Below are positions 36,173-38,626 of a stretch of DNA of 64,000 nucleotides, piece by piece. The stretch is taken from sequence record NC_111505.1; one strand, 5' to 3'. The notes beneath the pieces are model-generated. The model was not told the DNA's origin, did no database searches, and was given only the letters and a program-made list of their open reading frames with translations. Positions within the stretch are counted from its first letter, which is position 1. Each line of letters opens with the position of its first letter. The translations under genes and the position numbers were made by a program. The DNA comes from a phage.

Positions 36173-36182
36173 GTTTCCTCCA

Positions 36183-36228
36183 TTATCACGTGATAGGTGG
36201 ATTTTATCACGGCAAATACTGATTGTCA
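36183..36228 (-). promoter_or_regulatory. sigma70-type promoter with palindromic operator-like site
   Basis: Minus strand: -35 TTGACA (36228..36223), 17-bp spacer, -10 TAAAAT (36205..36200); perfect 12-bp palindrome TATCACGTGATA (36183..36194) lies between the -10 and the RBS of the 35834..36172 gene. Confidence 0.45.
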
Positions 36229-36517
36229 AGTTCGCCGCAGGGTGGTATTCCCTGCGACTTGCCCAGCGTCCTAGACCAGCAAGACCCAACAAGTGGGTTA
36301 CCAGAGACCCATTACCGCGCTTTGGCTCGACCTTATTACAGGTTGGCTGGGGTCACATCGTCATGTGCTGGCTGCCCCTACCATTTTAAGTGTGGTGCAC
36401 TATCAAGCCCTCTAAGGGGAACTCAGCCTTCTCCGAACCCTGTTTCAAAGCATCCGGAGATAAAGCCATCAAACTCATCTTTAAATTGGATATTCATCAT
36501 GATACACGAAAACAACC

Positions 36518-36760
36518 TCATTGTAAAGCACAAATAAATAAAACATACTTAATTTGTTTGTTATCGGGCTCAGGGTAGAAGTAGAAGATCTTGCTATCAC
36601 CAATCTGAACACCACCATCCCAACAACATAAACCATAACCCGTATTCATACAAGCTAAGTCGTTGGCAAAATCTATTGCATCATCTAGTGCACGAAATTC
36701 ACCTTCATCTTCTAAATAATCCTCATTCATGGAACGGAAAACGAGCTTAACCTTAAACAT
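36518..36760 (-). CDS. hypothetical protein
   Basis: 80-aa ORF, acidic. Confidence 0.4.
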   Translation of the reverse strand: MFKVKLVFRSMNEDYLEDEGEFRALDDAIDFANDLACMNTGYGLCCWDGGVQIGDSKIFYFYPEPDNKQIKYVLFICALQ

Positions 36761-36836
36761 AGCATTACCTGTAGACCTCGTAAGTTAAAATTGTATCACA
36801 TCATATTGCAGATCTTATCAGGTAACATTATTTTTG

Positions 36837-37025
36837 TCAACAGATTCCGGCCTTATCCCTCCTGTCTGCGTATTCTTTAATCGCAACCTCACCTGCATTG
36901 GTAACCAGATCTTCAAAGTAATTCTCAAGCTCCTCGTCAATGTCCGGTGACCAGCTCTTTTTCCTGTCAGTGTGAATTGCAGACCTGTTGAACTTATTAC
37001 AGTTCTTTGCTACCGGATTGTTCAT
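36837..37025 (-). CDS. hypothetical protein
   Basis: 62-aa ORF on the same strand as its neighbours. Confidence 0.35.
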   Translation of the reverse strand: MNNPVAKNCNKFNRSAIHTDRKKSWSPDIDEELENYFEDLVTNAGEVAIKEYADRRDKAGIC

Positions 37026-37035
37026 TAAGCTCTCC

Positions 37036-37614
37036 TCAACGTTCGTAGTAAATCTTATTCAACATTACCTCATCGTTTGCAGAAAGGATATCAAGATATG
37101 CATCACCAAATCTGCCTGCAACAACCTCTGCATGATACATCACTTCGTCAACATCGTCAAGAGTGATAACCGGATGACCATATCTTTCTGAATATTGCCT
37201 CAGGGTGCGATGTAACGAGTCGTCATCATATGCAGACTTTTTAATATCACAAACACGACGAATGGCCTTGATGTCGAAAAAACCTGTGCGATACCACCCA
37301 AGAAAAAAGTTCCGTGTGGTGTCAACATCTACATCAATACCATCAAGAACCTTATCTACAAGATAGCTGTCATCCTTTGGACCAGCGTCCTTAGTGCGAA
37401 TGTAGTTGCCATCTTTTCCAGGCGATAGCTCCTTCTCATCACCAACCTGCATGCCATCATTTGGCGGTGTTAGCCACTTATCCGGATGCTTACGATCACG
37501 AGCGTTAGAATGATTACGCTGGAAACCTGGCTTCCACTTGAAAGTTTTCTCCATCTGTTCTTCATTCTGATAACGTTTTGCAATCTTTTCGCGGTCATCT
37601 TTGCGTGAACTCAT
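37036..37614 (-). CDS. hypothetical protein
   Basis: 192-aa ORF; first gene downstream of the 660-bp non-coding region. Confidence 0.5.
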   Translation of the reverse strand: MSSRKDDREKIAKRYQNEEQMEKTFKWKPGFQRNHSNARDRKHPDKWLTPPNDGMQVGDEKELSPGKDGNYIRTKDAGPKDDSYLVDKVLDGIDVDVDTTRNFFLGWYRTGFFDIKAIRRVCDIKKSAYDDDSLHRTLRQYSERYGHPVITLDDVDEVMYHAEVVAGRFGDAYLDILSANDEVMLNKIYYER

Positions 37615-37689
37615 AACTGCCTCCTCTTCAAGTTATAGAAAAACTCACTGTATCGCTTTGTAACGAGCTTTTCTATCAAACTGGTGCGA

Positions 37690-37985
37690 TTGCCTTACTT
37701 GGTATAGTTTACGCAGCTGTGTGGCGATTTAGGGGCCTTCCTGTCCGTTTCCACACATAAACTTTAACCAAACTCGCGCGGGAGGCTCTCAACCGACTCC
37801 TTACGGCGCTGGCAAGCTTTCGTCGGTGGCCCACATTAGTGCTCGGCATTTGGCCTGCGCTATCGCTTCGCTCCCACACATGTTAACAGTCCTGCATGTA
37901 TGCACTCCTGTTATTGTGTGCACTATGGAGGCCCGGCATCTCGCCCCTCGTAGGCGAGTGCCAATGAGGGGCCGACACTACCAAT
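37690..37985. other. GC-rich ORF-free island with multiple stems (candidate structured RNA or regulatory leader)
   Basis: About 300 nt visibly more GC-rich than flanking DNA, with no ORF of 60 aa or more in any frame and several complementary segments (GCCCCTC/GAGGGGC, CCGAC/GTCGG, GGGAG/CTCCC). Confidence 0.2.
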
Positions 37986-38117
37986 AGTAAGTAATAAATT
38001 TAAAACATGGTACTTAGGATCTAGTATATTCTACATAAGTTAAGTATATGTACTTTAGTACCATAAGTACTAGATCTTTTATTTTTTATTATTTAGTTAT
38101 TTTAGTTATATTCTTTA

Positions 38118-38201
38118 TGTGTCCGTATCACGGACAGTTAGTGTCCGTATTACGGGCAGATGTGTCCGCGTGACGGACAGTAGTGTCCGTATCACGGACA
38201 G
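38118..38201. repeat. four tandem iterons, each an inverted repeat (TGTCCGT-nnn-ACGGACA)
   Basis: Units at 38118..38137, 38141..38159, 38161..38180 and 38183..38201 (period 20-22 bp), each a palindrome with 7-bp arms; preceded by an AT-rich tract (37985..38117) with AGTAC-type repeats. Confidence 0.7.
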
Positions 38202-38275
38202 TTACTACCCTCTGCTCTGGGATGGACATAAAACATACGAATCCTTATAGTACAGATATTTAAGTTTTTACTGGT

Positions 38276-38626
38276 CTAACCAGTTGTTGACATTCGAATA
38301 ACCTCTTCTGGTGGCAAAACTTTGGAAAATGTGCACCTTTTACCTCTCCCTTGTGTGGATATTTCAACCACTCCTGCACATTCTAAAGTTTTAACGCACG
38401 CTGCTGCTTTTGTTTTCTTTATCCCAACATCTGCTGCAATTTTCCTTGTGCTGGGTGTGAAGCGTGAACTTCCTCCAAGCTTATACCAGTTGTGCAGGTA
38501 GCAGTATACGATCTTGTCATACAAGTCAAGAATAACAACCTCCCCAGTTGTGTCATTCAAAACTTTTGACATAGACAGTATTTCAAGGGGGACTTTAAGA
38601 TATAGCAGCTTATCCCCATCTTTCAT
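38276..38626 (-). CDS. helix-turn-helix DNA-binding protein
   Basis: 116-aa ORF with HTH-like segment (RKIAADVGIKKTKAAACVKTLECAGVVEI), directly adjacent to the iteron array. Confidence 0.5.
   Translation of the reverse strand: MKDGDKLLYLKVPLEILSMSKVLNDTTGEVVILDLYDKIVYCYLHNWYKLGGSSRFTPSTRKIAADVGIKKTKAAACVKTLECAGVVEISTQGRGKRCTFSKVLPPEEVIRMSTTG

Follow-up and report, generated by a model that had tools for sequence, protein, structure and literature searches.

Phage genomes are known to carry several kinds of structured RNA, some of them stable products in their own right. Phage T4 encodes two small stable RNAs, C and D (rnaC and rnaD, also called species 1 and 2), within its tRNA cluster and processes them together with the tRNAs, while GOLLD and ROOL, at 500-800 nt, are elaborately structured orphan RNAs, in many cases carried by phages and adjacent to tRNA genes, for which we know of no established biochemical function. 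Type III antitoxin RNAs of the ToxI kind are built as tandem arrays of 34-45-nt repeats beside a toxin gene; the put RNAs of phage HK022 are two simple stem-loops, transcribed in cis ahead of terminators; and riboswitch aptamers of the THF-I type combine a three-way junction with near-invariant unpaired bases, short covarying helices and a long-range pseudoknot. Here we describe an RNA motif encoded in a GC-rich stretch (positions 36173-36517) of a 64,000-nt phage sequence, NC_111505.1, the whole of which we call the window. The window belongs to an rV5-like E. coli phage, the DNA around this stretch being 97-99% identical to such phages (Vequintavirus: HMD-6, FV3 and rV5 variants), and the motif itself is shared with far more distant virulent phages, T4 among them, as an RNA family that appears uncatalogued.

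The motif resembles each of these systems in some respects and departs from it in others. Outside the T4-like phages it is placed much as rnaC and rnaD are, yet it has no relation to them in sequence or structure, and in T4 itself it lies ~6 kb away from them, upstream of vs.8; identity with rnaC or rnaD was rejected after R1, a covariance model of the motif core, gave at most 7.9 bits over the T4 tRNA/rnaC/rnaD region with filters off. GOLLD and ROOL are several times longer than the ~80-nt core, are found mainly in Firmicutes and in lake and rumen samples whereas the motif belongs to enterobacterial and Pseudomonas phages, and share no Rfam match with it. With THF-I-type aptamers the motif shares all the architectural traits listed above as well as, in T4-like phages, a position in a 5' leader; it differs from them in matching no Rfam riboswitch model, in being followed by functionally incoherent genes and in often standing alone with a terminator. 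As with put, a structured phage RNA is transcribed in cis ahead of terminators, but the motif is a pseudoknotted junction in place of two stem-loops and its position relative to terminators and tRNAs is not constant. A ToxI-like antitoxin was also considered and rejected, with no tandem repeat in 36100-37900 and a single model match in the window. The rV5-related phage PhiTE is reported to use a pseudo-ToxI non-coding RNA against host defence (PMC3475682), a precedent for RNA-based anti-defence within the rV5 group; ToxI-type RNAs, however, consist of short tandem repeats, and the motif is single-copy and without repeats.

Comparison among relatives makes it very probable that the GC-rich stretch encodes a compact, conserved, structured RNA on the minus strand, with a core of ~79 nt (36378..36300; parts in Table 1). 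In a MAFFT alignment of 46 distinct cores (A3), the Pa helix covaries at pair 7-46 (41 C-G, 5 G-C) and at pair 8-45 (30 C-G, 6 G-C, 6 U-A, 4 A-U), and the closing pair of Pb, 10-23, changes from A-U (43 cores) to G-C (3 cores) in three lineages, with no core left unpaired at any of the three; a model-based alignment agrees with these pair counts for Pa and Pb. Pc is a hairpin of 2-3 bp (GCC/GGC, GUC/GAC, GC/GC or GU/AC) whose loop is free to vary. About 30 near-invariant bases lie within this three-way junction of Pa, Pb and Pc, in which hardly any junction or Pb nucleotide varies.

The outer P0 stem is rebuilt from clade to clade in compensatory fashion (GGAAC/GUUCC, GGGAA/UUCCC, AAAGC/GCUUU, AAAGG/CCUUU, GCGC/GCGC, AUAC/GUAU, GAAUG/CAUUC, GAGGG/CCCUC). 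With 5' ends picked by eye, cognate P0 duplexes average -5.9 kcal/mol against -2.2 kcal/mol for non-cognate ones, a difference that no permutation reached (p<0.0002). A further pairing joins the internal loop of P0 to the 3' tail and likewise changes on both sides, from GCCAG/CUGGU in the window to GUGAGGG/CCCUUAC in L027, UGAGG/CCUCA in L119, CGCCGA/UCGGUG in Moon, ACCG/CGGU in L045 and ACUG/CAGU in pf16 (L numbers denote individual loci); across 18 lineages, the same cognate versus non-cognate duplex test gives p=0.0004. One strand of this pairing is enclosed by P0 and the other lies beyond it, which makes the pairing a pseudoknot. CUGG is fixed in the close rV5 clade, behind a linker that differs in both length and sequence, and between the two rV5 clades P0 and the pseudoknot have been fully replaced in a compensatory manner. 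The three hairpins that follow in the window are poorly conserved, being partly deleted in L129 and different in L027, and probably lie outside the family-defining core; as they are not followed by a U-tract, they do not form an intrinsic terminator.

The comparison also tells the functional strand. Pairs of the motif contain 27 G.U against 12 A.C combinations overall, and 25 against 1 in the two wobble-prone pairs of Pa, an excess that identifies the transcribed strand as the functional one. The motif has the orientation of the tRNAs and neighbouring genes at all loci examined.

A sensitive BLAST search with the 345 nt against phage genomes returned 118 rV5-like records and ~580 others, mostly T4-like, the latter matching over 44 nt only, at 91-95% identity; the T4 piece used as query matched 1,082 phage records. 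Pattern scans yielded 44 and 51 loci in viral contigs and 33 in metagenomes, the metagenome scan contributing few new lineages. R1 scores every member at 45-75 bits, including Pseudomonas phage pf16 (54 bits) and Kagunavirus fEg-Eco19 (53 bits), and finds in the 64-kb window a single match, at 36352..36300 (66 bits, E 4.8e-18). Besides the rV5-like phages, which include a second, sister clade (L027, L110, L117, L119), and the T4-like phages, the motif occurs in Shigella phage SF1-1 and related 46-70-kb contigs, in the Pseudomonas putida phage pf16, in Kagunavirus-like siphoviruses and in several uncultured lineages; a few phages have two tandem, diverged copies. All named members are virulent phage types. 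The motif was not found in 5,426 complete E. coli genomes, and when each bacterial species was represented by one genome, a scan returned 35 matches, about the number expected by chance, nearly all of them without the GCGGUAA part and many apparently coding. The family therefore belongs to phages, and as defined here it seems restricted to those of Enterobacteria, Pseudomonas and relatives. A bacterial origin was rejected on the same grounds, the sole plasmid match being an rV5-like record (CP057073.1).

At most loci outside the T4-like phages, the motif lies within or beside a tRNA cluster on the same strand. In pf16 it occupies the whole of an unannotated gap that runs from a gene to a terminator, the latter marked by the genome's authors and located ~25 nt past the motif; in Kagunavirus it follows the lysin gene, with a strong terminator ~80 nt beyond it; and in L045, an uncultured 93-kb phage contig, it lies between the 3' end of a tRNA and a terminator. 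No protein gene accompanies the motif, and the neighbourhoods of open reading frames (ORFs) are heterogeneous among loci: vs.8, its constant neighbour in T4-like phages, is found neither in the window nor at the non-T4 loci, and the proteins that flank the motif in the window are conserved within rV5-like phages only.

Some of these loci hold further structure. In SF1-1 (L012 81-2641), a 2.5-kb stretch without annotated features contains at least 10 tRNA genes together with the motif. In SF1-1-related contigs (L017, L018, L022, L034), an outer stem formed by GUUGUGAC and GUCACAAC encloses the motif, and hairpin modules of the form GUAAGAGCAUU...AGUGCUCUUAUC are repeated between the tRNAs. In a spacer of the tRNA array in L045 (3351-3396), 46 nt resemble the Rfam model of archaeal large-subunit rRNA over its positions 1184-1229 (26.9 bits, E 2e-4) and may be a small mimic of an rRNA fragment.

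The T4-like phages present a more uniform picture. In eight genera (Tequatrovirus, Mosigvirus, Dhakavirus, Gaprivervirus, Jiaodavirus, Moonvirus, Gelderlandvirus and Karamvirus) the motif always occupies a gap of ~130-180 nt before vs.8. T2 and RB55 share the invariant core with the window, and the upstream stem and hairpin differ by compensatory change (GGGG..CACAU/AUGUG..CCCC in the window, GGGAA..CCUCAU/AUGAGG..UUCCC in T2 and RB55). Across the T4-like phages, identity of the vs.8 protein falls as low as 37%, with no such change in the RNA core. In the T4 reference (NC_000866), vs.8 is annotated at 64253-64912 (locus L137 754-1413) as a protein of 219 aa starting 26 nt after denV, so that the motif, at 64,852-64,904, falls inside the annotated N-terminus (~40 codons). 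The counterpart in T4 of window positions 36378..36300 is at about 64,852-64,935, on the minus strand. T2 does not keep the N-terminal extension intact, and it is out of frame in other T4-like genera, whose vs.8 homologues of ~175-184 aa start ~110 nt further downstream. Because the homologues start there and the extension coincides with the RNA motif, the T4 vs.8 start probably needs correction, and the present annotation may explain why the RNA went unnoticed in T4. Next to vs.8 in T4 lies vs.4, which we take to be an anti-defence gene.

A second conserved module stands between the motif and the vs.8 start (e.g., L010 1550-1603 and L002 2545-2601). It has the form AUGGA ... CAUGUGCC-A-N-GGAA-Y-GGCCC and precedes a ribosome-binding site of the AGAGA type; of its two GGA motifs, one lies in a hairpin loop. 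This arrangement may resemble CsrA-type binding sites.

Free-standing units with a terminator, clustering with tRNAs, no constant coding neighbour and ~30 invariant bases together make a stable RNA acting in trans the most likely function. Taken as a whole, the reading we favour, an uncatalogued family of phage RNAs that would be stable and trans-acting, is probable, though with clear room for others. A leftward transcript starting upstream, at the candidate promoter listed in Table 1, would carry the RNA, which would be stable and act in trans, perhaps after maturation together with tRNAs. It would bind one conserved partner, whether a host or phage protein or a small ligand, one possible role being that of a decoy during host takeover or in anti-defence; the binding of such a partner we put forward tentatively. 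More doubtful again is that the motif represents a new class of active phage RNA, horizontally shared and hidden in T4 vs.8, that would work as a decoy or sponge against a host factor or defence system or would form a new ligand-sensing or self-cleaving fold. If the favoured reading is true, strong selection acts on a compact pseudoknotted RNA in five or more groups of virulent phages that are unrelated to one another, T4 included, and the RNA has been left unannotated. So high a degree of conservation among unrelated phages usually signals interaction with a shared, fundamental target, for instance host machinery, a defence system or a metabolite, and the size of the motif suits direct biochemistry and genetics in T4 and E. 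coli. The T4 reference would have its vs.8 start corrected, and there would be one more case of the still unexplained association of orphan structured RNAs with tRNA clusters in phages.

Several observations pull the other way. An alternative drawing of the core is a single long hairpin (Model B), with CUGU set against GCGG and GGU against GCC; across the family this fold is 90-97% paired, with one-sided changes only. The three-way junction is the better supported of the two folds and the RNA may alternate between both, and the retention of the Model B pairing makes a two-fold switch possible, which would fit a riboswitch better than a passive binder. The Pa helix is just 3-5 bp long. Folding of single sequences does no better than shuffles on either strand (z = -1.2 and -0.6), a measure that is uninformative on short helices; RNAalifold on the core alignment recovers Pb only, and the minimum free energy folds of 50 members are inconsistent with one another. 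Some of the apparent invariance of the core is ascertainment, given that member sequences share descent and that 17 core bases were fixed in the pattern of the first scan; a looser pattern found variants that still obey the pairings. In T4-like phages, moreover, the motif always lies 60-100 nt ahead of the vs.8 start with the second conserved module next to it, which looks cis-regulatory. Finally, the ends and the stability of the RNA are read from sequence.

Foremost among the other explanations, and unlikely in our judgement, is a cis-acting riboswitch or leader in which the junction would be an aptamer or a sensor of protein or tRNA and two folds would control what follows the motif, which is vs.8 for T4-like phages and, in the window, the AT-hook gene or the tRNAs. 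The motif does lie directly upstream of vs.8, followed there by a conserved module and a ribosome-binding site; two mutually exclusive pairings are each kept in at least 90% of sequences, both alternative core folds fit the alignment, and Pb stem nucleotides never vary, as expected when serving two partners. Some phages have tandem copies, and terminators follow 3' of the motif in pf16, Kagunavirus and L045, so that a terminator or a ribosome-binding site is present downstream in some lineages. Yet the genes downstream are unrelated among phage groups, a strong promoter separates the motif from the next gene in both the window and the sister clade, and new promoters follow the terminators of pf16 and Kagunavirus. 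Those terminators are 25-110 nt away with no obvious overlap with the 3' strand of Pa, and no consistent pairing that competes with the closing helix of the aptamer was found. A self-cleaving ribozyme or processing module, cutting polycistronic early or tRNA transcripts, has a lower probability still; it would suit a small pseudoknotted junction rich in invariant bases, as is typical of small ribozymes, located in tRNA clusters and between operons, and in the window's clade two similar hairpin-plus-CUUG modules flank the motif. The ~30 invariant bases, however, exceed the needs of known small ribozymes, hammerhead-type core motifs are lacking, and a known small ribozyme was rejected after no Rfam model of the hammerhead, twister, twister-sister, pistol, hatchet or HDV-like kind matched at E<=10.

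Processive antitermination by analogy with put, in which the RNA would bind the transcribing polymerase in cis and allow read-through of terminators and structured tRNA genes, we consider very unlikely. The motif stands upstream of tRNA clusters in the window, L017, L027, L034, L041 and L047 and just ahead of intrinsic terminators in pf16, Kagunavirus, L045, L048 and L101, but it lies downstream of or within the cluster in L012, L018, L028, L045 and L095, and its architecture is unlike that of the two-hairpin put RNAs. An element acting at the level of DNA (a recombination hotspot, cassette boundary, packaging site or origin), the last in this order of likelihood after the cis switch, the ribozyme or processing module and the put-like antiterminator, might be supposed from the border that the motif forms in T4-like phages between hypervariable internal-protein (ip) genes and the conserved vs block, and from its proximity to terminase genes in some contigs. 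Such an element would explain neither the toleration of G.U but not A.C nor an orientation that always follows transcription, compensatory changes keep intramolecular helices and the pseudoknot, and each genome has a single copy of the motif where recombination cassettes are repeated. The least probable account, to which we give hardly any weight, combines the proposal of the first-pass annotation, an RNA made from a promoter and operator under a regulator shared with nearby iterons, with protein coding by either the 104-aa ORF or the long N-terminus of T4 vs.8. A promoter and a palindrome do exist, some annotators call small ORFs here, and the T4 reference extends vs.8 across the motif; against this, the promoter fires away from the GC-rich part, the palindrome is within chance, the hexamer said to link it with the iterons is not enriched, the plus-strand ORF is closed in the sister clade, and T2 and other T4-like phages have the vs.8 extension interrupted or out of frame. 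Protein coding was rejected on the loss of the opposite-strand ORF in the sister clade, on 1-2-nt linker indels within the close clade and on a core that does not vary at any of the three codon positions although vs.8 next to it diverges to 37% identity.

No known RNA family accounts for the motif. The Rfam scan proposed for this region in the first-pass annotation was run with Rfam 15 and gave no family match: at the gathering threshold nothing in the window covers the motif, and at E<=10 only noise of 9-12 bits appears; the motif loci of pf16, Kagunavirus, L045, Mineola, SF1-1, T4 and L027 likewise gave no match. Identity as a tRNA was rejected, ARAGORN and the Rfam tRNA model detecting the six neighbouring tRNAs and nothing at 36300-36378. 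Likenesses to twister and pistol loops, to the 530 loop of 16S rRNA (GCGGUAAU) and to 4.5S RNA were short enough to be chance and without Rfam support, and were dropped. In the literature, none of the papers in the library searched has the core sequence, and searches on T4, vs.8/denV, rV5/Vequintavirus and non-coding RNA gave nothing relevant; a 2023 catalogue of ~10,000 anonymous candidate phage RNAs could include the motif (PMC10690425).

Table 1. Elements of the RNA and neighbouring features in the window
Feature	Position	Strand	Basis or detail
Candidate sigma-70 promoter for the RNA, TTTACA-17-TATCAT	36527..36499	minus	10/12 match; overlaps the stop codon of gene 36518..36760
5' leader	36482..36379	minus	alignment of the window with sister clade L027
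Leader block AAAGAUGAGUUUGAUGGCUUU	36482-36462	minus	conserved within rV5-like phages only
Leader hairpin CUCCG...CGGAG	36459-36431	minus	between the two conserved blocks
Leader block CCCCUUAGAGGGCUUGAUAGUGCACCACACUUAAAAUGGUA	36419-36379	minus	conserved within rV5-like phages only
P0 domain	36378..36349	minus	stem GGGG 36378-36375 with CCCC 36352-36349
P0 internal loop CAGCCAG	36374-36368	minus	
P0 capping hairpin CACAU-GACG-AUGUG	36367-36354	minus	
Three-way-junction core	36352..36300	minus	covariance model R1
Pa, GCC with GGU	36347-36345 with 36309-36307	minus	
Pb, ACCU-GUAAUA-AGGU	36343-36330	minus	
Junction CGA	36329-36327	minus	
Pc, GC-CAAAGC-GC	36326-36317	minus	
Junction GGUAAUG	36316-36310	minus	
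Pseudoknot, GCCAG with CUGGU	36372-36368 with 36304-36300	minus	P0 internal loop with 3' tail
Three 3' hairpins, ACCCA..UGGGU, CUUGC..GCAAG, CGCAGGG..CCCUGCG	36299-36234	minus	
tRNA cluster, six genes	35014-35737	minus	ARAGORN and Rfam tRNA model

Two elements that had been read as one can now be separated: an ordinary promoter with a possible operator, serving gene 36172..35834, and an independent RNA gene upstream of it. The stretch is GC-rich as first described (G+C of 0.51-0.53 at 36100-36400 against 0.36-0.42 in the flanks), and the genes on either side of it (36518..36760 and 35834..36172) are both on the minus strand, which is the strand of every gene near 36173-36517. It had also been called free of credible ORFs but for short ones on the plus strand; the stretch is indeed not protein-coding, although "short" is a loose description, as one plus-strand ORF of 104 aa (36223..36537) spans the region. 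This ORF is antisense to all neighbouring genes and is not preserved in the sister clade, where the longest open stretch on the opposite strand runs to 34-71 codons.

The near-consensus promoter reported by the first-pass annotation, TTGACA-17-TAAAAT, is present on the minus strand at 36229..36201, with an 11/12 match and an extended TG. It tops the 13 promoter-like sites found in 3 kb (6.4 expected), it has the hexamers, the spacing, the direction towards a gene and the conserved position of a sigma-70 promoter, and the sister clade has TTGACA-17-TAAACT at the equivalent position. Its relation to the GC-rich part is the reverse of the one proposed. Along the minus strand, gene 36518..36760 ends, the GC-rich stretch follows, and next come the promoter, the palindrome, a ribosome-binding site and the ATG at 36172, so that the GC-rich part lies upstream of the promoter, which points to gene 36172..35834. 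That the promoter serves this gene is credible from the sequence layout, and possibly it also drives the tRNA cluster. Located 3' of the RNA and firing away from it, this promoter cannot produce the RNA. What survives of the proposed discrete non-coding RNA is thus the RNA, which comparison supports as conserved and structured, and not its promoter and operator wiring: the promoter and operator part is ordinary, and the GC-rich part is a member of a widespread phage RNA family with a well-supported fold.

The candidate promoter for the RNA itself (Table 1) has a predicted transcription start near 36492 and is conserved in the close relative L003 and absent from the sister clade, where a candidate with TTGACA-16-TATACT lies ~90 nt upstream of the core and a second promoter ~60 nt past it. 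No intrinsic terminator was found 3' of the RNA in the window, so the RNA would be part of a longer transcript unless processed.

The palindrome, TATCACGTGATA, is present at 36184-36195 as described but is not a rarity, since the window has 11 perfect 12-bp palindromes against 17.8 +/- 4.3 in shuffled sequence. Only its position, at about +1..+11 of the promoter at 36229..36201, is notable; it is conserved in close rV5 relatives only, the sister clade having a different sequence there, and on this positional support it may be an operator or a 5'-untranslated-region element of gene 36172..35834. Its ATCACG core had been said to occur in each of the iterons at 38118..38201, hinting at a shared regulator. 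The hexamer is in fact present in two of the four copies (at 38127 and 38191) and occurs at a chance-level frequency in the window (28 observed against 19.4 expected, with 6 of 100 shuffles reaching 28), and with the palindrome absent from the sister clade we do not retain the shared regulator.

Pairing around the start of the downstream gene may add a further layer. In the sister clade (L027/L119, around L119 4775-4830), the -10 box and transcription start of the second promoter lie between the arms of a 9-bp inverted repeat, CTCCAGAAT...ATTCTGGAG, whose 3' arm includes the ribosome-binding site; in the window (36201-36174), GGAGGA could pair with a UCCACC that immediately precedes the predicted start. 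The ribosome-binding site may therefore be masked in read-through transcripts, which include the RNA, but not in those initiated at the promoter.

The product of gene 36172..35834 has an RGRP AT-hook-like motif, and Pfam and PHROGs assign no function to the genes beside the motif in the window. Within the tRNA cluster, a tRNA-like gene of 97-99 nt on the minus strand (35170-35268) is given a four-base anticodon (atcc) and no amino acid by ARAGORN and scores 37.5 bits with the Rfam tRNA model; the same odd call recurs in the relative L039, and the gene could be an intron-containing, frameshift-suppressor or degenerate tRNA. The other GC-rich, ORF-free region of the window (37690-37990, minus strand; GC 0.545) is confined to rV5-like phages at 90-99% identity. 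It has no Rfam match and a fold z-score of -1.8, and it is not a copy of the motif, the model matching only once in the window.

Four 21-nt iterons with arms GTCCG..CGGAC (38119-38202) adjoin an A+T-rich stretch, and the gene upstream of them on the minus strand, 38276..38626, matches the PHROG replication-initiator family phrog_12838 (E 2e-79); positions 38040-38626 of the window are probably a replication origin. Among database relatives of the window, 16-18 records labelled "Campylobacter phage" (MG065652, MG065676, MG065672 and others) are 96-98% identical to rV5-like coliphage DNA, and the E. coli "plasmid" record CP057073.1, which at 137.5 kb is rV5-sized, contains sequence 95.6% identical; these records are probably mislabelled or contaminated.

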